From NCBI GenBank assembly GCA_964484905.1, contig CAZAGN010000006.1, positions 1 to 43,621 on the forward strand: a stretch of 43,621 nt of DNA, given 5' to 3'. Under the pieces are notes generated by a model, which worked only from the letters and a program-made list of their open reading frames with translations, had not been told where the DNA came from and did not search any database. Below, piece after piece: positions 3,712 to 18,405 of this stretch. The stretch's first letter is position 1. Each line of letters opens with the position of its first letter. Origin of the DNA: an uncultured bacterium (GTDB lineage: Bacteria; Cyanobacteriota; Cyanobacteriia; Thermostichales; PCC-7336). A program made the translations under genes and the position numbers.

Positions 3712-4830
3712 CTAGGTTGGGAAGGGTAGGTATTTACTGATAACCTCGGTCACTTTGAGCCTGTCCGGTGGCTTAGCCAAGAATTCAGTCGCACCAACAA
3801 GCCGAGCCCTGACACGATCTACAATTCCATCTTGGCCCGTCAGGATGATGATAGGTATTTCTTTGAATAAACTGGTTTTGCGAAGAGAGGCACACAATTC
3901 ATAACCGTTTGTATGTGGCATCAACAGGTCTAAAAATATTAATTCAGGTTTGTGCCTAACCATGACCGAGACTGCCTTGAGTGGATCCTCGACCGTTATC
4001 ACCTTGTAATTAGGTAACAAATTTTTCATAACATGTCCCATTGTAGGGCTGTCATCAATACAAACAACACAGGGAGGTTGTGGCTTGGATGGCACCGCCG
4101 GAGCTTCAAGGCGCCAATTGTCTGGTAAGGGCAGGTCAGCCGCTGAAACGGGCTCTAGCCAGCCTTGACTGACAAAGGATTCGAGGGAGCGACTTAGCAT
4201 GGCAACTGGGCGTTCCATCCGCAGTGCTATTTGGTAAAGAGAGGACTTTCCATCAATTGTTCGGCTCAAAGCCTGAAAAACATTTGGAGATACGCGTTGC
4301 TCAAACTGGTCAGGCTTAGCGAGCCTGAGAACCAGTTCAGGCTCCAAGGGCATCTGTGGTAAGGTTTGTATCTGATTCAGTATTTGTTCAGTAGAAAATA
4401 GATAAATTTGACGATTTAGTATCTTGCTATCACTCCATGTCAATGTGATAGGTTTTGACTTAATTATGCCTACGAAGCACTCGTTCAATGTGGCCTGGCT
4501 CAACTGACGAACTTGGTCAACGGTGATTCGCCCACGGTCTATAGCTTGACCAAGCAAATCGTATTCCCATGGTTCGCTGCGAATCTGAAAATCTTGCAGC
4601 TCTTGCCAGCTGAGCTGAGGGCAGTATTGATGCCACAATCGCTGCCAGCGGCGAACCCTCGGTTCACTAACCCCAAACAGCAAGCGTCCCATGAAAAAGT
4701 GCAGTCGCCATTGGGTGCCAATTGCTATGACCAAGAGCTCCCCACTGAATCTTTTTTGGCAGTTTAAGCGAATTTCTTCAACAAAAGTCTTTGTACTGAT
4801 ATTTGAAGCTACCTCTGGCAACTTGGTCAT
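3712..4830 (-). CDS. PatA-type response regulator (N-terminal PATAN domain plus C-terminal REC; PixG/PilG type)
   Basis: C-terminal REC: VVCIDDSPTMGHVM...LIFLDLLMPHTNGYELC...IPIIILTGQDG...FLAKP. It follows a ~250 aa PATAN-like N-terminal domain. The likely start is the ATG at 4828-4830, preceded by GAGGGA. The track ORF extends to a TTG at 4854. Confidence 0.8.
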   Translation of the reverse strand: MTKLPEVASNISTKTFVEEIRLNCQKRFSGELLVIAIGTQWRLHFFMGRLLFGVSEPRVRRWQRLWHQYCPQLSWQELQDFQIRSEPWEYDLLGQAIDRGRITVDQVRQLSQATLNECFVGIIKSKPITLTWSDSKILNRQIYLFSTEQILNQIQTLPQMPLEPELVLRLAKPDQFEQRVSPNVFQALSRTIDGKSSLYQIALRMERPVAMLSRSLESFVSQGWLEPVSAADLPLPDNWRLEAPAVPSKPQPPCVVCIDDSPTMGHVMKNLLPNYKVITVEDPLKAVSVMVRHKPELIFLDLLMPHTNGYELCASLRKTSLFKEIPIIILTGQDGIVDRVRARLVGATEFLAKPPDRLKVTEVISKYLPFPT

Positions 4831-5173
4831 AGAGTTTCCCTCATGTGAACCCAAACAGGTAGAGCACTTTAGTTTTCTATCTTAAGACAAATATACATTG
4901 CTTAATGATTACGTTGATGTATGCCAAGATACATGTGCGGCAAAATCTGGTAAAGCTCGAAAGAACGTGGCAGCCTGAAGCGTTAGGTCTCAAATTAGAT
5001 AGTTGTCGATGTGATTGTCGAAAATTTCTGACAAGAATAGGGTTGTACATGCCAGATGGGATAGCTGTTTGCACCGCTATGAGAGCTATTTCACAAAGGG
5101 AATCTGAAGACGTGAAGGGAGTTAGCGGCAAGTGGGGGTATAGAATTGCGAGTCGAAGTCGGAGAGAGAGGAA

Positions 5174-5605
5174 ATGAGCCGCTTACCCACAGTTGCAAAT
5201 AGCCACCGCAAAGCCTATCCTAGCGACCTGAGTGATGCGGAGCGGGAGCGAATCAAAGACCTCCTGCCCCAGCCCAAAGGCTTTGGCCATCCGGTAAGCG
5301 CCGACTTTCGTGAGATTCTCAATGATATTTTCTACGTGCAGCGAACAGGCTGTCAGTGGGAGATGATGCCCCATGACTTGCCGCCATACACAACGGTGTA
5401 TCACTACCTACGTAAATGGCAACGACAGGGAGTCTGGCAGCAGATGTACGCTCAGTTACGAAGCTCTGTACGGCAGCGTCAAGGTCGAGAAGCTGACGCC
5501 AGCGTGGCAATCCTTGACTCTCAGTCGGTGAAGACGACAGAAAAAAGGGGGAGGTTTACGGCTGTGACGGTGGCAAAAAAGTTAAAGGCCGTAAGCGGCA
5601 TGTAG
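5174..5605 (+). CDS. IS5-family transposase, OrfA (N-terminal part, upstream of the frameshift)
   Basis: YPSDLSDAERERIKDLLP...GRP-like...YVQRTGCQWEMMPHDLPPYTTVYHYLRKWQRQGVW is the typical IS5/DUF4096 N-terminal domain. ILDSQSVKTTEK carries the first DDE Asp. Confidence 0.85.
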   Translation: MSRLPTVANSHRKAYPSDLSDAERERIKDLLPQPKGFGHPVSADFREILNDIFYVQRTGCQWEMMPHDLPPYTTVYHYLRKWQRQGVWQQMYAQLRSSVRQRQGREADASVAILDSQSVKTTEKRGRFTAVTVAKKLKAVSGM

Positions 5606-5994
5606 TGGTCGATTCCCAAGGACTACTGCTAGGCGTATTCGTGAGTGAAGCGAATGCATCTGAACGTTTAGGTGCGGTTGTTCTGTTAGCTGAGCTAAAG
5701 CAGCAAGCCCAGTTGAGACGTGTGAAGGTTATTTGGGTTGACCAAGGCTACAGTGGCACTCGCTTCGCTGAGCAAGTGAGACAGATTTGTGGTGAGCACG
5801 TCCGTGTAAAGGTCATTCAGCGTCAATCGCCCGTATTTGAGCTCATGCACAAGCGATGGATTGTTGAGCGTACCTTTGGCTGGCTTAATCGGTTTCGGCG
5901 TTTGAGCAAAGACTATGAACTCTATCCCGAGACAAGTGAAGTGATGATTTATGGTGCTCTCTTTCACCTTCTCCTCAGACGACTCGCTCTTTAA
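5605..5994 (+). CDS. IS5-family transposase, OrfB (DDE catalytic part). Probably expressed as an OrfAB fusion by a -1 frameshift at the A6G run at 5541-5547.
   Basis: The -1 frame is open from 5518. It reads ...KKGEVYGCDGGKKVKGRKRHVVVDSQGLLL, which restores the conserved IS5 motif G(Y)D(G)GKKVKGRKRH. VWVDQGY and RWIVERTFGWLNRFRRLSKDYE supply the second Asp and the Glu. Confidence 0.85.
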   Translation: MVDSQGLLLGVFVSEANASERLGAVVLLAELKQQAQLRRVKVIWVDQGYSGTRFAEQVRQICGEHVRVKVIQRQSPVFELMHKRWIVERTFGWLNRFRRLSKDYELYPETSEVMIYGALFHLLLRRLAL

Positions 5995-6039
5995 CTTTTA
6001 CTTTATAAATCAGCTCTTAAGGAGTCTCTTATGCGAGGC

Positions 6040-6372
6040 TCAAACCAAGCCATTGAACCTGCCTAGGTCTTTGGCGTCTGCATACAGAGTCCAAGCCTCG
6101 GTACGGATGAATAGTCCTATCCCGTCTGTGGTGAACTGGGTTAACCCCGAGGGGGTTTCTACGATGTGTGTAGCTGGTATGGCTTCCAAAGCCTTGTGAA
6201 AGTAATCTGCTAGCAGTTTCTTGGGCACCCACAGATTCTTTCCTGTGGAGCTAATTGCATGTAAGTCGTCGGGGTAGTGGTTCACGGTTCTGAGTGCTTC
6301 ATTTTGATCGCCCTTGGGGTCGGGCAAAGTTCTAAACGAGAGCAGTAGCATTCCAAAATCAACAGGATTCAT
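6040..6372 (-). CDS. Hypothetical protein (110 aa). No family recognised.
   Basis: ORF only. It sits downstream of, and on the same strand as, 6436..6759, and its stop lies ~20 nt from the IS right end. Confidence 0.35.
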   Translation of the reverse strand: MNPVDFGMLLLSFRTLPDPKGDQNEALRTVNHYPDDLHAISSTGKNLWVPKKLLADYFHKALEAIPATHIVETPSGLTQFTTDGIGLFIRTEAWTLYADAKDLGRFNGLV

Positions 6373-6435
6373 TTCAATAACTCCAAAGGGGAAAGATACC
6401 CGCTGCCAGTTTCCTAGCGGCGGGTGTGGGTAGTC

Positions 6436-6759
6436 CTAGCGCGTTGCTTCGGTGACGACATCACTCACAAGCAGGTTGATGCTCGTGGCCACCTCCGAAA
6501 ACAGACGGGTGGGATTGGCAGTAGTGGTGATGGTGTTACGGGTGCTGATGGCCTGGGCTTTGGTGGCTTGGGCAAGTTGAACCGCTGCTTCGACTGTGGC
6601 ATTCAGACGGCGGCGGGTGAGCACACCAGCTCGGTAGACGGCGATCAAGATCCGTTTCCAGTCAATAGACGCGATGCATTGAATGGCGTTAACTAATGCC
6701 ATAACGAAAAGCACTAAGGATGCTGCGAGCAAGGTGTGGGCTTTGAAGTTAGGTTGCAT
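6436..6759 (-). CDS. Hypothetical small membrane-anchored protein (107 aa)
   Basis: N-terminal hydrophobic helix (HTLLAASLVLFVMALVNAI), then an Ala/Thr-rich, probably helical region. No family recognised. Confidence 0.35.
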   Translation of the reverse strand: MQPNFKAHTLLAASLVLFVMALVNAIQCIASIDWKRILIAVYRAGVLTRRRLNATVEAAVQLAQATKAQAISTRNTITTTANPTRLFSEVATSINLLVSDVVTEATR

Positions 6760-7168
6760 TGTGTTTATCTCCGTGATTGTGGGTGGCGATGCGAGATGTG
6801 CAAGAGTGGGTGCCCTAGCGCTAGCAACTAGGGCTGTAGGCGGTAGCAGATTTGTTTCTAGGAGCGATGCCAGCGCCCCTATGGATTAGAGAAAGGTTGG
6901 CAGTACGGTTGCCAGCGGGCTAATTACGCAGCCACGCGCCCCTATTTGCAGTTGGAGTTCTGTTGGGTGGGGTTCCGCATCCCCGCGCTGGTATCGGTGC
7001 GACCGAGTGTTTTAGACCCTTGCGAGGTCTGCCCTTAAGGGGCAAGCTTGCGAGTTAGCCGTTGGCATGGATCCCGCACGACCATCAGCGCTAATGGCCA
7101 CTTAAAAGGGGTGCCGTTTGGGTTGACTTTCGGGCTTGCGGTCGGCGTCCGTTTCCCATGCCTTACTA

Positions 7169-7243
7169 TAGCGTAAACTTTTTAACGGTGTCAAGACATT
7201 AGCGTAAAAAATCTGCGATAGTGGATACATGTGTTTAGCGAAT
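7169..7243 (+). promoter_or_regulatory. Three direct copies of TAGCG(T)AA(A/T) just upstream of, and overlapping, the XRE gene start. Candidate operator set.
   Basis: TAGCGTAAA at 7169-7177 and 7200-7208. TAGCGAAT at 7236-7243. A TTGACT -35-like hexamer lies upstream (~7123). Confidence 0.4.
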
Positions 7244-7246
7244 CCC

Positions 7247-7447
7247 ATGAGCAAGATAGAGCAACTAAGGCAAAGCGCAGGACTTACACAGCGCCAGCTT
7301 GCTGACGCTGTGAACGTGACCGAGAGCACGATCAGGAACTGGGAGCATGATCGCAACGGCACCGTGATGGTCGAAAAGGTTTACCGACTTTGCAAGGCGC
7401 TTAACTGTTCCCTTGAGGATCTGGTGGCAGGGGAATCAGAGGACTGA
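7247..7447 (+). CDS. XRE-family (Cro/CI-type) helix-turn-helix transcriptional regulator
   Basis: MSKIEQLRQSAGLTQRQLADAVNVTESTIRNWEHDRNG...VYRLCKALNCSLEDLV is a textbook HTH_3 pattern. The track ORF starts at 7229, but the ATG at 7247 is more typical. Confidence 0.85.
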   Translation: MSKIEQLRQSAGLTQRQLADAVNVTESTIRNWEHDRNGTVMVEKVYRLCKALNCSLEDLVAGESED

Positions 7448-7708
7448 TCTCATTGAATTTGATTTTGGTTCAACGAGTTAAACATTCTGTGATGTGAATC
7501 TAGTTTTCGGTTCGGCAGATAGTTATTTTTGTGCAAAGCCATTAGGCTCAAACCCAGTCAGGGTATGGAATTGAGGGGTTATTTTTTTTGCGAATCTGGC
7601 TAACCCTTATCACCGTGAATGGCTCTAACCCCTTACATGGCCCCGACTCTACAGCGGGTCGCAATGTCAGCGATCTACAATTTGATCATCCGATGAGGTA
7701 CTTACTAA

Positions 7709-7891
7709 ATGCCGACTAAAGCGAAACACTTCCGCCGCCGCCGACCCCACTCAATTTATCTTTTAGATAGGCATTCAGCCGTACTCAGAAGCATTGCCGA
7801 CGAACGATCCATGTCTCTGTCGCAGACAGTTGAGACGCTTCTTTTGCCGTTCCTTGAGCGACAACCTGAGTATTTGGATCAGATCAAATAG
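7709..7891 (+). CDS. Small basic protein (60 aa), possibly a ribbon-helix-helix (CopG/Arc-like) DNA-binding protein
   Basis: A basic N-terminus (KAKHFRRRRPHSIYL) is followed by helices (HSAVLRSIADERSMSLSQTVETLLLPFLE), which fits a strand-helix-helix layout. It lies directly upstream of the primase-helicase. Confidence 0.5.
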   Translation: MPTKAKHFRRRRPHSIYLLDRHSAVLRSIADERSMSLSQTVETLLLPFLERQPEYLDQIK

Positions 7892-7900
7892 AGCAAAAAT

Positions 7901-7968
7901 TTCCCCCCAACTCGGCAAAGTCAGGGGGGGTATCGGAACTAAAGCCGATTGTTTTTGTTTTGTGTTTT
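7901..7968 (+). terminator. Hairpins followed by a T-rich tract; possible attenuator or terminator between the RHH gene and the primase-helicase
   Basis: A C6 (7903-7908) / G7 (7924-7930) hairpin, then ATCGG(7932-7936)...CCGAT(7945-7949), then TGTTTTTGTTTTGTGTTTT. Confidence 0.35.
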
Positions 7969-8200
7969 CAGTCTTCCGACTGGTTCCCCCCGTTATTAAG
8001 CAGAGGTCACTCTTTGAGTTTACATCAAAATCCTATAGCGTTTAAGGCACCCACCGCTGGGTTTACGCGATTCTCAAATTCCAAAGTTCCTACACCCATT
8101 TTTGACAGAGTGCCGTATGACTGTCGGAAATGCCCCAATGAAAAAGTCAGTCTTTGCAAGACGCAGTGCTTCGCTTGCCTTGATGTGGAGGGCAACGAAG

Positions 8201-10822
8201 ATGCTTAACCACATAAGCGTTTTGCCTGACCAATGGCCCCTTGTCGCCGTGCGTGACAAAGCCCCGTACATGGCCGGGTGGCAGCGTACCCCACTGAGTA
8301 AGTTTGAAGTTCTAAAGCAAGCCAAAAATGGCGCTGCTAACGGCGCTGGCATTCTGCTGGGTGGCGATTGGCTAGCGGTCGATATTGACGGCACTAGCGC
8401 TGCTTTGATGGCTGAAGCTTTATCGGGATTACCAATTGGTGAGGCGTTGCCAACAACTGTGCAATTCACCAGCGGCAAACCAGGGCGGTGTCAGCTTCTC
8501 TATCGTGTGCCCACTGAGTACCAGAACCGCATCACTGGCAGGGCATTTTTAACGGGTGCGACTGATGCGAGCGGCAAGCCCGAACAGTTAGATTTTCGCT
8601 ACACAGGCAAGCAATCGGTACTTGTCGGTGCTCATCCTGAAACGGGTTCATATCGCTGGTTACACAGCCCAGATACAACACCCGTGGCAGATTGCCCAGA
8701 GTGGATTTTGGATCTACTCAGTAAGCCGCACGCCATCGCTAACAGCGGCAACAGTGCCAGTGATCAGAGCGTGTCGTTAGAGGTGCTTAGCGAGGCGCTA
8801 GACGCCATTGATCCTGATTGCGACTACAACACATGGTTAGGCATTGGCATGTCTCTGTACGCCCTTCCAGATGAGGCGGGGTTTGATATGTGGGATCAGT
8901 GGTCTAGCCGTGGCAGCAAATATCGGCCAGGGGAGACGGTCGTTAAATGGGATTCATTCGCGGGTAAAGATAGCCGCCCAGAGGCAGTGATCGCGATCGC
9001 GAAAGATCGTTACGGGTGGGCGTTACCGAAACCAACACCAGTGGTTAAGACGGATGACGATGATCAATCGTTCGAGGTCCTTGATCACGGCTACGAGTAT
9101 CACGGCGATCTGCTGTGTGATGAGCTGAGAGCGCCTATCGAGCGGATAGCAGCAGGCTTTAACCAACCGCCGGTCATCGCCACAGCCGCACTACTCACGG
9201 TGGCTGCATCGTGTCTCAAGGTTGGCACCATGCTGGATATCGGCGGCTCTACCAATTGGAAAGTACCGCCGATTCTCTGGACGTGCGTTGTCGGTGAGTC
9301 AGGTAGTACGAAATCGCCCTACCTCGAAAAACTGGTGTCACCCCTGTATCAGTTGCAAACCTCTGATGATGCTGTCTATGAGGCCGCGAAAAAGCAGTAC
9401 AAAGCTGATCTAAAAGCCTATGAGGCAGCTAAAACCCGTAGCGGTTCGACAGACGATCTGCCAGATGAACCCACCAAACCGACTGCCACAGAGCGCTATG
9501 TGAGCGACTACACCCTGGAGGCACTGTCTCGGATCGTTGCAGAGCAACCGGAAAACGGGCTGCTGGTCTGGAACGATGAGCTAAAGCTGTTTTTTGCCTC
9601 AATGGATGCCTACAAAAAGCAGGGAGGTGGCGACCGCGCTCAGTGGCTAGGTTTACGCAACGGATCCGGTCTCAAACGGAACCGCAAGGGCGATGATCGT
9701 GTTTCTGTAGCTAGAACCGCTGTGAGCGTTCTAGGCGGCATTCAGCCCGAAGTGCTGGCGAAACTCATCAATGGCGATCGCGACGGGGCTGATGGACTTT
9801 ACCCGCGTTTCCTATGGCTGCGCATGGATGAATCTCGCCGAATGCCGCCGCTAAACGGTACACGCTGGGATGCCACAGAGCGATTCAGGTCGGTTTATGA
9901 GCGACTTAGCCGTCTAGAGCCTAGGGAATACCGCCTAAGCCCGCAGGCGTTTCGCACATTCAATGAATGGCATATGGAATGTGAGAGTGGCCGCATAGAG
10001 GCATCTAACGGGCTCATCAAGGCAACCATCTCTAAATACAAAGGGATGGCTGCCAGTGTTGCACTGATTCTGCATTGTCTGAACAGCGTCGCCAGTGGTG
10101 AGTCTGTGAGTGGAACCATCCCCGAAAGCACCATGATTCGGGCGATAGATTTCACGCGCTGGGCAGTCAATCAAGCTAAATCTCTATTTGCTGTGAATGC
10201 CATCACCACAGATAAGGAAACGGCTAGTATTCATAGACTCGTAAAGGAGTTTTCTGGCAAGGGCTGGATAAAGTCTAGAACGATACGGGATTTTCGGACT
10301 GAAAAGGGTAATAAAAAAATGTCTGCCCAAGAAACTAGAGACTTCATGCACTCTCTAGTTACAAGCGGCGTTGCCATAGATAACGACAAGTCGCCCAACG
10401 ATCCAAAGTACGAAATTCAGATTTTATCTAAAACTCAGTCCATTCAGTCCATAAATCCTGAACCGCAGTCACAGCAAGCGGTTGAGGATGGACTGAACCT
10501 CAGTCCATCCTCAGTCCACACTCAGTCCATAAGTGCTGAAGACCGACCCTTGGAAGAAAAGTGGACTGAACACGGACTGAGCATGGACTTAAACTCAGTC
10601 CACTCTGAAACGCAGTCACAGCAAGCGGTTGAAGAAAAGTGGACTGAATGGACTGAAAATCCGGAAGAATCTGATCGCTCCACTCCAGTGAATGAACCTC
10701 AACCAGACAACAGCGATTGTCATCCGAGTGTTGTTGCTACCGAGGTGATGCTAGATAAAGATGCTGCCGAACTTGCCGCTATGGCGATGTTTCTAGGAGA
10801 TTTGGCCGATGAGTTTAACTAA
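8201..10822 (+). CDS. Replication protein: bifunctional Prim-Pol (AEP) domain, PriCT-2 domain and DUF3987-type P-loop helicase, with an acidic repeat-containing C-terminal tail
   Basis: Prim-Pol: LPDQWPLVAVRDKAPYMAGWQ, LAVDIDG, DFRYTGKQSVLVGAHPETGSYRW. PriCT-2: YNTWLGIGMSLYALPDEAGFDMWDQWSSRGSKYRPGETVVKWDSF. Walker A: VVGESGSTKSP. The likely start is the ATG at 8201, preceded by GGAGGG. The track ORF begins at 8102. Confidence 0.85.
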   Translation: MLNHISVLPDQWPLVAVRDKAPYMAGWQRTPLSKFEVLKQAKNGAANGAGILLGGDWLAVDIDGTSAALMAEALSGLPIGEALPTTVQFTSGKPGRCQLLYRVPTEYQNRITGRAFLTGATDASGKPEQLDFRYTGKQSVLVGAHPETGSYRWLHSPDTTPVADCPEWILDLLSKPHAIANSGNSASDQSVSLEVLSEALDAIDPDCDYNTWLGIGMSLYALPDEAGFDMWDQWSSRGSKYRPGETVVKWDSFAGKDSRPEAVIAIAKDRYGWALPKPTPVVKTDDDDQSFEVLDHGYEYHGDLLCDELRAPIERIAAGFNQPPVIATAALLTVAASCLKVGTMLDIGGSTNWKVPPILWTCVVGESGSTKSPYLEKLVSPLYQLQTSDDAVYEAAKKQYKADLKAYEAAKTRSGSTDDLPDEPTKPTATERYVSDYTLEALSRIVAEQPENGLLVWNDELKLFFASMDAYKKQGGGDRAQWLGLRNGSGLKRNRKGDDRVSVARTAVSVLGGIQPEVLAKLINGDRDGADGLYPRFLWLRMDESRRMPPLNGTRWDATERFRSVYERLSRLEPREYRLSPQAFRTFNEWHMECESGRIEASNGLIKATISKYKGMAASVALILHCLNSVASGESVSGTIPESTMIRAIDFTRWAVNQAKSLFAVNAITTDKETASIHRLVKEFSGKGWIKSRTIRDFRTEKGNKKMSAQETRDFMHSLVTSGVAIDNDKSPNDPKYEIQILSKTQSIQSINPEPQSQQAVEDGLNLSPSSVHTQSISAEDRPLEEKWTEHGLSMDLNSVHSETQSQQAVEEKWTEWTENPEESDRSTPVNEPQPDNSDCHPSVVATEVMLDKDAAELAAMAMFLGDLADEFN
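10433..10657. repeat. Iteron-like array: 6 direct TCAGTCCA, 4 exact inverted TGGACTGA plus 2 degenerate copies, and a 22-nt direct repeat. All lie inside the 3' end of the primase-helicase ORF.
   Basis: TCAGTCCA at 10435, 10444, 10500, 10511, 10522, 10595. TGGACTGA at 10489, 10562, 10640, 10649. Degenerate copies: CGGACTGA at 10573 and TGGACTT at 10584. CGCAGTCACAGCAAGCGGTTGA at 10464-10485 and 10611-10632. Confidence 0.6.
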
Positions 10823-12740
10823 CTTGCGCTTCCTTGGTTGGGATTTTGAGACGATGCAGAAGGTCGCTAAAGTACACCGGATACCTATTGATTCATCGAT
10901 CAGAAATGATGAACATAAAGCAGCCCTAAAACGGTTACTAAGCTATCCACCTACGCCCCGTCATGGGATTACCCATAACGGTGATCGCTTAGAGGTGGAT
11001 TTAGACCGGCTAGATCTTGGCTATGTACCCATGGTGAAGCCGCCTATCTGGTCAGGTCAGATACCTGTGAAACCATGGGCTGAGGCTGAGAAAACTATCT
11101 GCTATATCGATATTGAAACCACAGGGCTAGAACCCAGCACCGACCGCGTGATCGCCGTCGGCATTCTCAGGAATGGGGAGTACAGGATTATTGCGGATGA
11201 CGATGAGCCTGCATTGCTGAGTGAGGCGATATCAGAGGTGTCTAAAGGGATTATCTGTGGTCACAACGTCTTTAAATTTGATCTGCCCTTTCTAATGACA
11301 CGGTGCAGCCTTCACCGAATCAAGCACTCATTCCGTAAGGCCAATAAAACCAAACTAATCACATCCAGCTCAATAAATGGGAAACCAATTGAGTACACAC
11401 CGATTTATGCCCGTGGCGTGGATGTTGTAGACACGCTGCACCAAGTCTCAATCTATGACAAGGCAGCGGCTAAGCTCTCTGGCTATGGCCTTAAAAACAG
11501 CGTGATCGAGCTGGGGTTGCGTGAGGATCGGCGGCTAGAGCTGTCGCCATCTGAGATCCGCGAGAGCTGGGAAAGTGGCAACACTGAACCCTTACACGAG
11601 TATCTACGGTACGACCTAGACGACACCCGCCTACTGGCTAACTACCTACTGCCAGTGGTGTGGCAACAACAGGCTTATGTACCAAATCTCAATTTCCAGA
11701 CCCTAGCGGTGGCCTCACCAGCGCTCAAGGCACAAATGATACACCAGTCTCTATCACTGCCTTATGCGGTCGCTGATGTGTCAATGAAATACACGGGCGG
11801 GGGCATCGCCTGTCATACACCTGGATTACACCGGAACCTAGCCAAGATTGATGTTTCAAGCCTTTACCCGTCGCTGATGCTGCGCTATGGCCTATGCAGC
11901 CGTAAAGACCCCGAAAACAAGTTTCTAGGGGTGTTGGCCTACATGGTTCAGGAACGCTTGCGGCTAAAGGCACTGGCTAAAGCTGGTGACACGGTAGCGG
12001 ATCAGCAGCAGGGAGCGCTGAAGATTCTGATCAATGGTTCCTATGGCTTCTTTGGCACGGGTTGCTATGCCTACAACGATTACGAATGCGCTGCCCTAGT
12101 GACCGCCTATGGGCGTAAGGTTCTCTCGGTAATGGAGCGGGTGATCGTGGATCAAGGTGGCGTGCTGGTCGAATCTGATACCGATGGGGTGATGTTTACG
12201 GCTGATGACGCTGAGGCCGTTACCAATGCAGTACAGGCCGCTCTACCGGATGGGATCAGCGTTGATCTTGAGTTCTCTGGGTGGTGTGGCTACGTTCCCA
12301 AGGCAAAAAACTATGTGCTTTTCTCGCGGGACAAAAAGCCCCATGTGAAGGGTTTGTACCGCAAGCGCAACCGCTGCCAGCTAGAACGCGAGTTTGCGAT
12401 TGGTTTCCTGCGACGGTGGTTTTTTGACTGCCAGAGGGGTGCAATGTCCTACTACACCCAAACAGTGAGCCGATTAGAGTCAGGTGATTACCCCTTGGCT
12501 GAGCTATCCATCACGCGGAAAATCGCAGCTAACGAAAAGAATCTATCGCATCTGGGAAACCCTGGCGATAAAGTGACCTACTGGGTTGGTTGTGATCGAG
12601 CTGGACGCAAACCCAAAGCCATTAAAACTAACGAGCATCCCTATTGGACTGATCACTATGTGGGCATCCTTGATGGCGTCTTAGGATCAATGGGAATTAC
12701 CCATGATCGCGAGCAACTCACCCTATTCGAGTGCGCTTGA
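10809..12740 (+). CDS. polB: Family B DNA polymerase (compact, 643 aa) with an intact 3'-5' exonuclease domain
   Basis: ExoI ICYIDIETTG. ExoII GHNVFKFDLPFL. ExoIII YLRYDLDDT. Motif A KIDVSSLYPSLM. Motif B KILINGSYGFFG. Motif C LVESDTDGV. KxY-like AKNYV, followed by VKGLYRKRN. An AGGAG lies 9 nt upstream. The start overlaps the primase-helicase stop by 14 nt. Confidence 0.9.
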   Translation: MSLTNLRFLGWDFETMQKVAKVHRIPIDSSIRNDEHKAALKRLLSYPPTPRHGITHNGDRLEVDLDRLDLGYVPMVKPPIWSGQIPVKPWAEAEKTICYIDIETTGLEPSTDRVIAVGILRNGEYRIIADDDEPALLSEAISEVSKGIICGHNVFKFDLPFLMTRCSLHRIKHSFRKANKTKLITSSSINGKPIEYTPIYARGVDVVDTLHQVSIYDKAAAKLSGYGLKNSVIELGLREDRRLELSPSEIRESWESGNTEPLHEYLRYDLDDTRLLANYLLPVVWQQQAYVPNLNFQTLAVASPALKAQMIHQSLSLPYAVADVSMKYTGGGIACHTPGLHRNLAKIDVSSLYPSLMLRYGLCSRKDPENKFLGVLAYMVQERLRLKALAKAGDTVADQQQGALKILINGSYGFFGTGCYAYNDYECAALVTAYGRKVLSVMERVIVDQGGVLVESDTDGVMFTADDAEAVTNAVQAALPDGISVDLEFSGWCGYVPKAKNYVLFSRDKKPHVKGLYRKRNRCQLEREFAIGFLRRWFFDCQRGAMSYYTQTVSRLESGDYPLAELSITRKIAANEKNLSHLGNPGDKVTYWVGCDRAGRKPKAIKTNEHPYWTDHYVGILDGVLGSMGITHDREQLTLFECA

Positions 12741-12852
12741 CATACTCCCACGGCTAAAGCGCGTGGGCTTTACGGCACGATCTGGTAAACATGATCAATA
12801 AACTCGCGTGAGTCCCCCAGCTTTTTAGGTGGGGGAGGTAGAGCGTCTGAGT

Positions 12853-12876
12853 GAGGGGGTTCAACGCCCCCTTTCT
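12853..12876 (+). terminator. Intrinsic-terminator-like hairpin downstream of polB
   Basis: GAGGGGG-TTCAACG-CCCCCTT followed by TCTCT. Two further GC hairpins precede it (CCCACG...CGTGGG near 12748, CCCCCA...TGGGGG near 12813). Confidence 0.4.
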
Positions 12877-13399
12877 CTAAAGACTGAGCTCGACCAGATT
12901 CTGATCTAACCATCTACTCAGTGGGAGCAACTTACCCCTGCCTAGAGACAGGTAGAAGGTAGACGAAGCTCGTGAATCCTATTACGCAGCGCCCGGCCTG
13001 GCATCTGTGACGACTCATCAGGCCCAGAGTGTATTGGGATTCGTTGTTGTATATTCCTGTCCCATATTGAATGATACGACCTAAGTCTTCTGAGGTAAGA
13101 TAATGAAGCAATATCAAGGTTCGTAATTAGCAAAGCTATGTAGACTGAATATACAGATCAAAAGCTGAGCAAAATCTACGGCAATTACTTACACTAGGGT
13201 GAGTTCCATATACTACTCACTCTAAAGGTGTCTTTATTGATTTAAGCTGTCAATCGCATTTGTTTGCTCGTAACAAGATTAAATACAGCCACCATTGGAG
13301 TAGTTCTAGTCAGTGGACTTCTGTACCGCTTCTGAGGCTTTCTCAAGTCAGGTTCTGGAGGAGTTCATGGTTACTCAATTAAAGTAAGGAGAGTTAGTC

Positions 13400-14110
13400 A
13401 TGCGTGTTTTCGCTATCATTTCTGCTTGTATGCTGGCAGTTACGCCTGTGTCAGTACTTGCTCAAAGCTCAGTCATTGCTCAGCTTTATAGGCAGCTAAA
13501 CACAGCACTGAGTGAAGGTGATTATGCCACTGTGCAGTCTGTAGCTCGAAATTTGGCCACCCTAGATACGCCTCGACAGCGCGAGCTTGAGAGTTTAGCG
13601 ACGGCAATTGATACAGGTGATTCTCTTGCACCTTATTTAGGTGCGTTAATCGAGAGCCTTCAAGATACACCTTGGCCTGAGCCACCCTCTGCTTCCGTAC
13701 CTGCTCAACCCGCGGCTCAAACCCAAGAAAGCTCTGACTCACCTGCAACAGCCACACTTCCTAACACTCGCATCGTTCGGGTTCCTTTTGGACGTACAGG
13801 CACTCCCTTTACTCAGGGTGATCTCAGCGTCCGTATTGAAGGCGAGACACAAGTTGGGCGGCTAGCGGAATTGGGTGTCAGAGCAATGCTGGTTCACCCT
13901 GAAGGCTGCTCTGACTGGGCATCGATCACCTTTAGAGCCTACGACCGCTTTCAGATGGTACATACCTGGCGAGAGCAGACTGTAGGCTTTGTGGGCCGTG
14001 AATGGCGTGTCAACTCACGCATTCCAGGTAATTTTGGCTCACCAGAAATGTCAAACTATCAGTTTTTTAGACCTGACTTCATTGATGTATCTGAAGCTGA
14101 ATGCCGTTAA
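13400..14110 (+). CDS. Secreted hypothetical protein (236 aa), element cargo
   Basis: Strong SD (AAGGAG). Signal peptide MRVFAIISACMLAVTPVSVLAQS. Pro/Ala/Gln linker. The C-terminal domain matches no family I recognise. Confidence 0.6.
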   Translation: MRVFAIISACMLAVTPVSVLAQSSVIAQLYRQLNTALSEGDYATVQSVARNLATLDTPRQRELESLATAIDTGDSLAPYLGALIESLQDTPWPEPPSASVPAQPAAQTQESSDSPATATLPNTRIVRVPFGRTGTPFTQGDLSVRIEGETQVGRLAELGVRAMLVHPEGCSDWASITFRAYDRFQMVHTWREQTVGFVGREWRVNSRIPGNFGSPEMSNYQFFRPDFIDVSEAECR

Positions 14111-16263: not shown

Positions 16264-16581
16264 ATGTTTTCAAACGCAGAGTTTTGTTACTTACGCTGGA
16301 CACGTACCGGCACAATGCAATCCCAAGGGTTCTGTCGTAGCACCGTTACTGAGTGGATAACCCGGAGGGACGTGAAAGTGTCGCTATCGAGTCAAATCAA
16401 GGTCGCAAAGGCGTATGGCTACACCACCTTGGATGATTTTCTGGATGGTGAGGACTTGCCAGGTTCAAGCCGAACCAATCCAGTCAGAGCCTCAACAACC
16501 GCCCTGGTGCCAGAGCCTCAGTCGTCTGAGGACTTGATGTTGATGTCTGGTACAACCTTGGGGTTAACGGAACGGGCATAG
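16264..16581 (+). CDS. Possible small XRE-like HTH protein converging on the integrase (candidate recombination directionality factor or regulator)
   Basis: LRWTRTGTMQSQGFCRSTVTEWITRRDVKVSLSSQIKVAKAYGYTTLDDFL loosely follows an HTH_3 pattern. It overlaps the integrase 3' end by 64 nt on the opposite strand. Weak call. Confidence 0.3.
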   Translation: MFSNAEFCYLRWTRTGTMQSQGFCRSTVTEWITRRDVKVSLSSQIKVAKAYGYTTLDDFLDGEDLPGSSRTNPVRASTTALVPEPQSSEDLMLMSGTTLGLTERA

Positions 16582-17684
16582 TGCCTCAGCATCGTCTGGG
16601 TGCTATGGCCAAGCTGAGCCGCTAGGTCTACGGGTGCCATTGACTGAATGGCATGGGAGATGAGTGTGTGTCGTAACATCATCTGCGGTCTGTAAGGCAC
16701 CCCAGAAAGCTCCATAACCCTTACCCAGCAGTGTTTCATCAACGTTCTTTGGTGTAGTGGCTTGCCTGTCTTACCCTTGAAAACCAGATCATCAGGCTTG
16801 CCTCTATCCAGGCTTAATAACAGTTCAATCAGTGACTCTGAGCAGTAGAATACGCGAGATTGGTGAGTTTTACTACCCTTACGAATTTGTTCATGCGACT
16901 TTCCCACTACCATCGCAGAACGAAAGCGAATACTGCTGCAATCTGCTTCAATATCCCCCCAGCGCAAACCAATCCCCTCTGAGAGACGGCAACCCGTCAT
17001 AGCCAGAAATGAATAGAACGGCACGTAATAGGCATAGTGGCGACTCTCAGCCATTGTCTTGAATATCTGCTGTAGTTCGGCTTCTGTGAAGGGCTGGTAG
17101 GCATCCTCTGATCGCCCCTTGATCATGCGACGTAGCCCCGCAAACGGGTTTGGCTGACTCCAGTAGCCACACTCAATCATCCATCTATAAAATCCGTGGC
17201 AAACAGAAATTCGCTTACGAATCGTTTCTGGACCGTTGCCCCGATCTCTCAGGACACCAATTAAATCAATGGCATCCGAGCGGGTCATGATCGGATCTAG
17301 GGTCTTGAGAATGTTAACCAGCGACACATACATAGCGCTGATTGTCCGGGGGTTTGTTACCAGGGCGGACTTCTGGCGTAGGTACTCTGTCCAGTATTCA
17401 TCAAGGGGGAATGCTTCTGTCCTGCCAACGACGCCCCATTCACTCCAGTCAAAGGTGCCTGTAATGAGCTGAGCTGAGAGCTGTCTAGCGTCCCTCAATG
17501 CCTGTTTAACCGCAGGGGAGGTGTCAGGGATATGAAGATAAATCGTCTGCTGGTGCCGCCCCTTATATTCATCCCCCGGCTTGGGCGGTAGCGTGGCTCT
17601 CAATCGGAGATGGCCTGACCGTGACTCAATTCTGACTTTGGCGCGTTCGGTTTTAAGTTTCAAGTTTGCCTGTTCTACGTCCAT
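16518..17684 (-). CDS. int: Tyrosine recombinase / phage-type integrase with an N-terminal arm-binding-like domain
   Basis: TGCRLSEGIGLRWGDI (Arg I). MLRHTLISHAI (box II His/Arg). LGHSTQTMLRHYAR (His and catalytic Tyr). The N-terminus VRIESRSGHLRLRATLPPKPG resembles arm-type DNA-binding domains. Confidence 0.9.
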   Translation of the reverse strand: MDVEQANLKLKTERAKVRIESRSGHLRLRATLPPKPGDEYKGRHQQTIYLHIPDTSPAVKQALRDARQLSAQLITGTFDWSEWGVVGRTEAFPLDEYWTEYLRQKSALVTNPRTISAMYVSLVNILKTLDPIMTRSDAIDLIGVLRDRGNGPETIRKRISVCHGFYRWMIECGYWSQPNPFAGLRRMIKGRSEDAYQPFTEAELQQIFKTMAESRHYAYYVPFYSFLAMTGCRLSEGIGLRWGDIEADCSSIRFRSAMVVGKSHEQIRKGSKTHQSRVFYCSESLIELLLSLDRGKPDDLVFKGKTGKPLHQRTLMKHCWVRVMELSGVPYRPQMMLRHTLISHAIQSMAPVDLAAQLGHSTQTMLRHYARSVNPKVVPDINIKSSDD

Positions 17685-17838
17685 GTCCTAACTATGTCCT
17701 AGCTATGTGAGACTAACCTTACACAACTGGGGTTATCTGAGCACAACTGAGCTATAGTTTCGGTAGAGCAGGACAGGGGTTAAAGCCTTGTGGGACGTGA
17801 ATTAAGGGCTGTTAATCGTTAGGGACGTATCGGACATT

Positions 17839-18405
17839 ATGGCAACAGTGTTAGTGCTACTCGCAGATCGCTTTGAAGAGCTGGAGGCGATCGCGACCAT
17901 TGATATTCTGCGGCGGGCTAACCTGACGGTTATCACAGCGAGCTTGGCCGACAGTTTGACCGTTACAGGTAGTCATCAGATTACGGTGCTGGCGGATATT
18001 CGTCTGGATACGCATCTGGATGAGGTAGATATCAAGACATGGCTGATGACGGCCGATGCCCTGGTGCTGCCCGGTGGCCCGGGGGTGCAGCAGCTGCGGC
18101 AGGATGAGCGGGTGTTGGCCCTGGCGCGGGCTTTTTACGGGGCAGCAAAACTAACGGCGGCGATTTGTGCAGCGCCGCTGGTGCTTTCAGATGTAGGTTT
18201 ACTCGCTGAGCACGCCGCCACAAGTTGGCCAGGGGTTGCCCCCGAAATTCGAGCACAAGCCTACAGTGAGGCGCGGGTTGTGCGTGATGCCCATGTGATT
18301 ACCAGCCGAGGCGCAGGCACAGCGGTTGAGTTTGCCCTCACGATTGTCGCGGCGTTGGTCGATCAAACGACTGCCGACCAGATTGCCCTCGCGATCGTTG
18401 CCTAA
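17839..18405 (+). CDS. DJ-1/PfpI family protein
   Basis: LVLPGGPG and the nucleophile-elbow context KLTAAICAAPLVL, with VITSRGAGTAVEFAL at the C-terminus. Confidence 0.85.
   Translation: MATVLVLLADRFEELEAIATIDILRRANLTVITASLADSLTVTGSHQITVLADIRLDTHLDEVDIKTWLMTADALVLPGGPGVQQLRQDERVLALARAFYGAAKLTAAICAAPLVLSDVGLLAEHAATSWPGVAPEIRAQAYSEARVVRDAHVITSRGAGTAVEFALTIVAALVDQTTADQIALAIVA

Follow-up and report, generated by a model that had tools for sequence, protein, structure and literature searches.

The window analyzed in this study, i.e., the whole stretch of 43,621 nucleotides (nt) of contig CAZAGN010000006.1 from an uncultured cyanobacterium of the PCC-7336 lineage, carries on its forward strand a gene (10809 to 12740) for a family-B DNA polymerase (PolB). 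We consider it probable that this PolB, a compact and proofreading RNA/DNA-primed polymerase of the bacterial group G3, is the clamp-dependent dedicated replicase of the ~12-kb integrase-bearing element in which it resides. Newly added here are the C-terminal QLTLF motif of PolB with its enrichment across the family, the plasmid sister clade encoded in dnaN-dnaX-PolB-holA clusters, and a circular 10.9-kb relative of the element. PolB itself is a member of an already described group and bears the published hallmarks of that clade, so it is not unprecedented.

The polymerase gene, its clade and its fold

The open reading frame (ORF) is uninterrupted from 10809 to 12740 and encodes 643 amino acids (aa), with Pfam matches to DNA_pol_B, DNA_pol_B_exo1, and RNase_H_2. 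Its parts are laid out as follows.

10809..12740, + strand: gene of the 643-aa PolB, assigned as a G3-type RNA/DNA-primed family-B polymerase with 3'-5' exonuclease (ORF, translation, Pfam, AlphaFold2 model)
10809..10946, + strand: residues 1-46, lineage-specific helical N-terminal extension (block identity, model confidence, family comparison)
10947..11093, + strand: residues 47-95, conserved remnant of the PolB N-terminal domain (consensus ...VDLDRLxLxYxP...PxW..., model confidence ~90-95)
11094..11678, + strand: 3'-5' exonuclease domain (ExoI D101/E103, ExoII D158, ExoIII Y265/D269)
11814..12338, + strand: palm and fingers (Motif A D348/Y353, Motif B K405, Motif C, KxY K500-Y502)
12171-12188, + strand: Motif C, E455-S-D457-T-D459-G (alignment)
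12339..12698, + strand: thumb domain (model secondary structure; alignment with the thumb of KOD as far as residue ~635)
12714..12728, + strand: QLTLF at residues 636-640, candidate motif for binding the beta sliding clamp, ending 3 residues before the C-terminus

The exonuclease motifs (ExoI DIET with D101/E103, ExoII GHNVFKFD with N153/D158, and ExoIII with Y265/D269) and the polymerase motifs (Motif A DVSSLYPS with D348...Y353, Motif B with K405/N409/Y412/G413, and KxY as K500-N-Y502) are all present, as the original prediction had read them, and their residues align with the catalytic residues of Escherichia coli Pol II, T4 gp43, phi29, and PRD1. No loss-of-function substitution was seen in this alignment, and every catalytic Asp, the loss of which had been named as an argument for rejection, is in place. 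Among 47 family members, D158, D269, D348, D457, D459, and K500 are invariant and D101/E103 are at least 90% conserved, and the window PolB retains all 69 residues that are invariant across the family. Altogether, these alignments argue for a complete and apparently active polymerase. Elsewhere in the family, the PolB of plasmid pCC7120beta (L006:7905-9722) has a His at the position of the steric-gate Tyr (window Y353) and a Phe at that of the Motif B Tyr (window Y412), which other examined members do not.

Homologs of PolB are numerous (2,611 cluster representatives at E<=1e-3, of which 323 reach E<=1e-30), and ~600 proteins that are 50-56% identical to it are mostly annotated "DNA polymerase, archaea type". 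Its named relatives are found both in phages (Nostoc/Anabaena phages A-1(L), A1, N1, and YongM at 36% identity and Salinibacter phages at 25-27%) and on plasmids (large cyanobacterial plasmids at 37-41% and Deinococcus plasmids at ~26%), a phage and plasmid group described by Chenard, Wirth, and Suttle in 2016 (PMC4916379). In the maximum-likelihood tree, the window PolB, its relatives, and the PolBs of the cyanobacterial plasmids, A-1(L), a Salinibacter phage, and a Deinococcus plasmid form a clade of 67 rows (support of 96 in the Shimodaira-Hasegawa-like approximate likelihood-ratio test), separate from Pol II and T4 (95) and from phi29 and PRD1 (99). The Nostoc and Salinibacter phage PolBs have been placed in the bacterial group G3, within the EpsilonN-like clade, by Kazlauskas, Krupovic, Guglielmini, Forterre, and Venclovas in 2020 (PMC7544198), for which a conserved Motif-C Glu is the clearest synapomorphy (PolEpsilonN/B10/G3). 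According to a 2026 survey (Timinskas et al., PMC12926913), this group is experimentally uncharacterized, both the exonuclease and the polymerase site are intact in it, and it bears a beta-clamp motif. From these literature anchors and the Motif-C signature, the window PolB can be assigned to G3. Indeed, the Glu of ESDTDG is at least 90% conserved among the 47 homologs, it aligns with Y or A in Pol II, T4, phi29, and PRD1, and [IV]ExDTDG recurs throughout the family. ESDTDG had been taken as unusual in the original prediction and is instead the published signature of G3 (PMC7544198). Likewise, the novelty that the prediction had implied gives way to a well-sampled clade with the same neighborhood (integrase, PrimPol/DUF3987, and PolB) in Chamaesiphon and other cyanobacteria. 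As a side observation, the PolB of phage A-1(L) (L007:5842-7848) has a Ser at the Motif-C Glu position and lacks the C-terminal clamp motif, unlike the plasmid and island relatives.

The clade question that had been raised, i.e., whether PolB is RNA/DNA-primed, protein-primed, or primer-independent, is answered in favor of the RNA/DNA-primed polymerases by tree, motif spacing, and motifs, and on these three lines the protein-primed and primer-independent types appear excluded. No model reached its cut-off in the NCBIfam search of PolB, which thus offers no curated family name for the clade; the Pol II equivalog, the YGDTDS Motif C of which is absent from PolB, gave a best score of 54 bits against a cut-off of 570. 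Only 10 of the 401 cyanobacterial species genomes match PolB at E<=1e-20, several of them through fragments or stop-interrupted copies, in agreement with the earlier remark that such polymerases are uncommon in cyanobacterial chromosomes, and this sporadic distribution fits a mobile-element gene. Only partial or stop-interrupted copies were found in G160:C5, G041:C1, G168:C1, G065:C142, and G242:C2 (L013-L018), suggesting frequent decay after integration.

The AlphaFold2 model of PolB, built on the family alignment, reached a mean predicted local distance difference test score (pLDDT) of 90.3 and a predicted template modeling score (pTM) of 0.83. Its top Foldseek matches are the archaeal RNA/DNA-primed PolBs 9°N, KOD, and Pfu (E ~1e-26), and the VIA-align Z-scores were 23.8 for KOD, 22 for yeast Pol epsilon, 21.9 for Pol alpha, and 21.8 for E. 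coli Pol II, each over approximately residues 82-635. The modeled structure thus points to an RNA/DNA-primed PolB and does not tell which subgroup, because the scores of KOD, Pol epsilon, Pol alpha, and Pol II are tied. Phi29-type structures were absent from the top 50 rows of Foldseek and of VIA, which we did not count as evidence.

The predicted shortness relative to cellular Pol II is real, as confirmed by the spacings: compared with the E. coli enzyme, PolB has 101 versus 156 residues from the N-terminus to ExoI, 57 versus 74 from Motif A to Motif B, 43 versus 70 from Motif C to KxY, and 143 versus 168 from KxY to the C-terminus. The distance from the N-terminus to ExoI in the longer G3 members and Pol II is 148-156 residues. 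The first ~95 residues, in which the original prediction had recognized nothing, indeed gave no Pfam match at E<=10 (nor did residues 560-643), and the reason is to be found in their composite nature. Residues 1-46 are variable and lineage specific (per-block identity to the query of 3-16%, gaps of 27-40%, pLDDT of 48-73): their helical type is common only to P0002, P0004, and P0006, it is missing from many family members, and in fused forms it is replaced by the helicase C-terminus, homology there beginning at query residues 44-63. Judged by eye, residues 10-45 might form a helix-loop-helix of the SAP/HeH kind. Residues 47-95 are, on the contrary, a family-conserved remnant domain, right at which many relatives of 589-620 aa begin. 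Chamaesiphon-type relatives have an unrelated beta-rich N-terminal extension instead, and in the structural comparisons KOD, Pol epsilon, and Pol II align with PolB only from residues 82-87 onward (equivalent to KOD 124 and Pol II 118).

Primase-helicase gene and candidate C-terminal clamp motif

Immediately upstream, the PolB gene overlaps a primase-helicase gene in the arrangement given below, and both the 14-nt overlap and the separate AGGAG reported in the original prediction were read directly from the sequence.

8102..10822, + strand: Prim-Pol / PriCT_2 / DUF3987 primase-helicase gene (Pfam E of 1.7e-19, 1.7e-15, and 3.3e-57)
10795..10799, + strand: AGGAG, Shine-Dalgarno-like site, 9 nt before the PolB ATG and inside the primase-helicase 3' end
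10809..10822, + strand: 14 nt shared by the PolB start and the end of the primase-helicase gene (stop TAA, 10820-10822), with PolB in the +1 frame

The longest primase-helicase ORF starts from the TTG at 8102, the ATG at 8201 being the likelier start; in the ORF counted from the TTG, the match to Prim-Pol starts with residue 44. The overlap recurs among relatives: in 8 of the 11 loci with split genes (L025, L026, L027, L030, L034, L036, L085, and L019), the PolB ATG lies 11-17 nt upstream of the helicase stop and always in the +1 frame, while other split loci have a 0-nt gap (one locus) or a 61-nt gap (one locus). A GAGG/GGAG run precedes the PolB ATG by 7-16 nt in most split relatives. Moreover, primase-helicase and PolB form a single open frame in three loci (L031, L033, and L093), and 34 of the 150 best cluster representatives are fused chains of 1,200-1,900 aa in which, as far as they were tested, Prim-Pol, PriCT_2, and DUF3987 (or DUF5906) precede the PolB domain. 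These fused forms are scattered across the tree, arguing for repeated fusion or fission. Since the two genes have been repeatedly fused in relatives, we see here strong "Rosetta-stone" evidence that PolB and the primase-helicase would act together, and the two-protein core suggested by the original prediction is reinforced by the purine run accompanying the overlap in split relatives and by the fusions. In one of the fused chains (P0125, 1698 aa), a Dam-type N6-adenine methyltransferase domain is inserted between the helicase and the polymerase of the PrimPol-PriCT2-DUF3987-PolB fusion.

For one characterized PriCT-DUF3987 protein, 5'-3' helicase activity and binding to its PrimPol have been shown (PMC11724360). 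A complex prediction of full-length PolB with primase-helicase residues 690-906 scored 0.00, without controls and with a poorly folded partner, and was used neither for nor against binding. The promoter and terminator scan of positions 7000-13500 returned no more sites than shuffled sequences, with nothing between helicase and PolB bearing on cotranscription.

The C-terminus of PolB reads ...EQLTLFECA, within a tail of low pLDDT that is typical of a linear motif. Of the 104 homologs with a recognizable thumb end, 47 carry the pattern Q[LM]x[LMI](F|x[LF]) within their final 35 residues; it was absent from all 1,792 control windows taken internally and present in 0.8% of shuffled tails. The C-terminal residues are QLSLF in the PolBs of the plasmid sister clade, similar to the QLGLF of E. 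coli Pol II. A single dnaN is present in the host genome, located outside the element, and we infer that the window PolB may use the host beta clamp. In two relatives of 934-937 aa (P0116 and P0119), PolB is fused to an N-terminal portion resembling DNA polymerase III delta (HolA), and their C-termini read QLTLVL and QLSLSL; one of the two is named "DNA polymerase III delta subunit" in one source.

The element and the probable role of its polymerase

The element extends from ~6 kb to ~17.8 kb of the window. It encodes an XRE repressor and a tyrosine integrase besides the primase-helicase and PolB, together with several unknown ORFs, and has a GC step at the right from ~0.47-0.53 up to ~0.57 past ~17.8 kb. 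Its borders and regulator are marked by the following features.

5174..5994, + strand: two-ORF IS5-family transposase at the left of the element (Pfam DUF4096, DDE_Tnp_1, DDE_Tnp_1_2)
7229..7447, + strand: XRE/Cro-CI-type repressor at the head of the replication genes (matches to PHROG transcriptional repressor families, lowest E 1.4e-13)
16518..17684, - strand: tyrosine integrase, right edge of the element (Pfam Phage_integrase, E 8.9e-15)

The IS5 copy (a DUF4096 ORF followed by a DDE ORF) is located between chemotaxis/response-regulator genes and the element, the left end of which it may have disrupted. Virion, conjugation, single-stranded DNA-binding protein (ssb), clamp, and clamp-loader genes were not found in the element by Pfam and PHROG.

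Among 79 loci from named genomes, PolB occurs in two contexts that are cleanly split by similarity. The ~17 relatives at 48-56% identity (Chamaesiphon, Thermosynechococcaceae, Chroococcales, and Hydrococcus metagenome-assembled genomes) show the order integrase...PrimPol/DUF3987-PolB, and those at 36-44% (plasmids of Nostocales, Chroococcidiopsis, and Phormidium) are encoded in DUF5895-dnaN-dnaX-PolB-holA-AAA(holB-like) clusters. Such a set of clamp, clamp loader, and PolB is carried by large conjugative plasmids at L006 (pCC7120beta), L008, L009, and ~45 further loci, and in pCC7120beta an ssb gene lies near the cluster. The PolB of these plasmid sets is named "3'-5' exonuclease" in RefSeq. 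The closest relative (L004, PolB 50% identical) is encoded on a contig (1-10967) with a 30-bp exact terminal overlap, over the junction of which a 788-aa PrimPol-type ORF closes, giving a circle of 10,937 bp with primase-helicase, a 151-aa ORF, PolB, and a tyrosine integrase. The closure of this contig suggests that such elements also exist as small circular replicons, L004 being a candidate episomal form. In one Chamaesiphon island (L003:13045-18140), the genes after PolB have the conflict- and defense-associated Pfam domains CTD7, MC3, and LmuB_C, so that the cargo may include defense genes.

We propose a model of element replication in which, after induction or excision, the PrimPol-PriCT2-DUF3987 protein would open the element origin, unwind the DNA, and lay primers. 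PolB, translated from the same mRNA through the overlapping start with its own Shine-Dalgarno site, would take over these primers and extend them with proofreading, while its C-terminal QLTLF would tether it to the host beta clamp, the element being devoid of a clamp or clamp loader of its own. Of this scenario, the intact gene, its clade, the conservation of gene order and overlap, the fused relatives, and the enrichment of the clamp motif across the family are shown here, and primer hand-off, clamp binding, and the actual replication of the element are inferred.

Other roles of PolB have to be weighed against this one. The Pol II-like clamp motif, together with the repair activities also reported for the PrimPol of a related mobile genetic element module (PMC11724360), could make of PolB an accessory repair or translesion polymerase, a cargo recruited to host clamps at stalled forks and not the replicase of the element. 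We find this unlikely given the conserved position of PolB overlapping the primase-helicase gene and the repeated fusion of both, the location of the plasmid sister clade among clamp and clamp-loader genes, and the intact proofreading site. Alternatively, the PolB gene could be functional but sit on an element that is decaying and has lost its mobility, i.e., be a silent relic repressed by the XRE regulator and without current role, as might be expected from the IS5 at the left border, the missing att repeat, and the several cyanobacterial genomes that keep only fragmented or stop-interrupted copies. Such a relic seems quite unlikely for a full-length PolB with all of its family-invariant residues, next to primase-helicase and integrase ORFs that are intact too.

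Two further readings concern how synthesis starts and how PolB is translated. An integrase-bearing, self-replicating element with a polymerase of 643 aa, close to the size of protein-primed PolBs (pPolB), recalls the primer-independent PolB (piPolB) of pipolins (PMC5695915), and PolB might start synthesis by itself, as a protein-primed (phi29/PRD1/casposon-like) or primer-independent enzyme that would render the Prim-Pol redundant. The insertions TPR1 and TPR2 are the hallmark of protein-primed PolBs (PMC5695915), but only 57 residues separate Motif A from Motif B, against 134 in phi29 and 120 in PRD1, leaving no room for them, and 52 separate Motif B from Motif C, against 73 and 88, respectively. 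In line with the check proposed in the original prediction, there are no inserts of that size and no piPolB-type motif: pipolin piPolBs have KTRG instead of KxY and an altered first Asp in the PolC motif (PMC5695915), whereas PolB has the canonical K500-N-Y502 and both Asp of D457-T-D459. Moreover, Pfam DNA_pol_B_2 is not listed among the PolB matches, phi29 and PRD1 are split off in the tree by branches of support 99 and 96, the best folds are all RNA/DNA-primed PolBs, and the replicon of the closest relative is circular; no terminal-protein gene was recognized by Pfam or PHROG among the PolB neighbors, though unknown ORFs remain. Self-priming thus appears extremely improbable. Finally, the 14-nt overlap could support a programmed +1 frameshift producing an occasional single primase-helicase-polymerase chain like that of the fused relatives, since the +1 frame, in which PolB is read, is open from 10797 and truly fused homologs are common. 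This is very improbable as well, no known slippery or shift-prone sequence being evident in 10797-10822, while the PolB ATG has its own properly spaced Shine-Dalgarno site and relatives exist with a 0-nt or a 61-nt gap.

Several points nevertheless weigh against PolB as a G3-type, clamp-dependent replicase of a mobile element. The tree of 71 rows resulted from a quick search and did not include archaeal or eukaryotic PolB references, so the G3 label comes down to published anchors and Motif C. In the sequence-profile comparison, the solved structures closest to PolB are those of archaeal PolBs and Pol delta, with Pol epsilon outside the best 60 PDB matches, and our own data do not confirm an "epsilon-like" label beyond the Motif-C Glu. 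There has been no experiment on any G3 PolB (PMC12926913), and the Chamaesiphon-type overlaps share descent and are not independent observations. The att search between 4800-7200 and 17600-17950 gave a longest exact match of 11 bp, which is unconvincing, and with IS5 at the left edge and no att found, the window copy may be immobile.

Beyond the window, we tentatively suggest that the combination of integrase, PrimPol/PriCT2/DUF3987, and G3 PolB could define an undescribed class of ~11- to 12-kb self-replicating integrative plasmids of cyanobacteria, with split (overlapping genes) or fused (1,200-1,900 aa) forms and a hybrid replisome made of an archaeo-eukaryotic-type primase, an MCM-like helicase, and an epsilon-like PolB on a bacterial beta clamp. 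If true, this class would be the first functional context for the uncharacterized G3 polymerases, to which the locus and its relatives give a concrete, testable job as clamp-dependent replicases of small integrative replicons with an archaeo-eukaryotic primase (AEP) and an MCM-like helicase. With its defined partner and defined clamp motif, a proofreading PolB of 643 aa, which in the shortest relatives measures ~595 aa, would also be a tractable minimal replisome for biochemistry, bearing on how archaeo-eukaryotic-type replication parts work inside bacteria. For the annotation of the window, the gain is modest, as PolB is ordinary for its clade and the features that had seemed unusual are hallmarks of it. 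The clade itself is nevertheless uncharacterized, and the clamp motif together with the conserved pairing or fusion with a PrimPol/DUF3987 helicase offers a clear handle for experiments.

Comparison with known systems

The closest comparison is with the G3/EpsilonN-like clade itself (PMC7544198, PMC12926913), with which PolB shares the Glu two residues before DTD, the intact exonuclease and polymerase sites, and the C-terminal beta-clamp motif. PolB is nevertheless shorter, at 643 aa against 801 aa in the Salinibacter phage and 765 aa in Deinococcus, and its N-terminal domain is cut down to ~50 conserved residues plus the lineage-specific 46-aa extension. Pairing or fusion with a PrimPol-DUF3987 helicase is mentioned in neither of the two papers. 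The PolBs of cyanophages A-1, A-1(L), and N-1 and of plasmids pCC7120beta, pP742402, and Anabaena variabilis plasmid C (PMC4916379) have the same compact core, with 36-41% identity over >80% of the length, and those of the plasmids also end in the clamp motif; however, the latter belong to DUF5895-dnaN-dnaX-PolB-holA-AAA clusters on conjugative plasmids of 150-370 kb and are not found beside a primase-helicase and an integrase.

The coupling of helicase, AEP primase, and PolB, which in window relatives goes as far as one chain, is reminiscent of HelPrimPolB of the Lactococcus phage 1706 gp55 type (Kazlauskas et al. 2016, PMC4889955). The order there is SF3 helicase-AEP-PolB and both Motif C and KxY are divergent, whereas the window family has the order AEP-PriCT2-DUF3987 (MCM-like SF6)-PolB with canonical motifs, the window copy being split. 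E. coli Pol II (group G1) is likewise RNA/DNA primed and proofreading, with a C-terminal QLxLF clamp motif and a structural Z-score of 21.8, but it belongs to another clade, with a YGDTDS Motif C, a chromosomal SOS gene, 783 aa, and a full N-terminal domain. As for pipolins (piPolB) and casposons (pPolB), they resemble the window element as small integrated elements with their own family-B polymerase and recombinase. Here, by contrast, PolB lacks TPR1 and TPR2, has KNY instead of KTRG, and keeps DTD intact, priming would be provided by a separate AEP primase-helicase, and the recombinase is a tyrosine integrase, with no Cas1.

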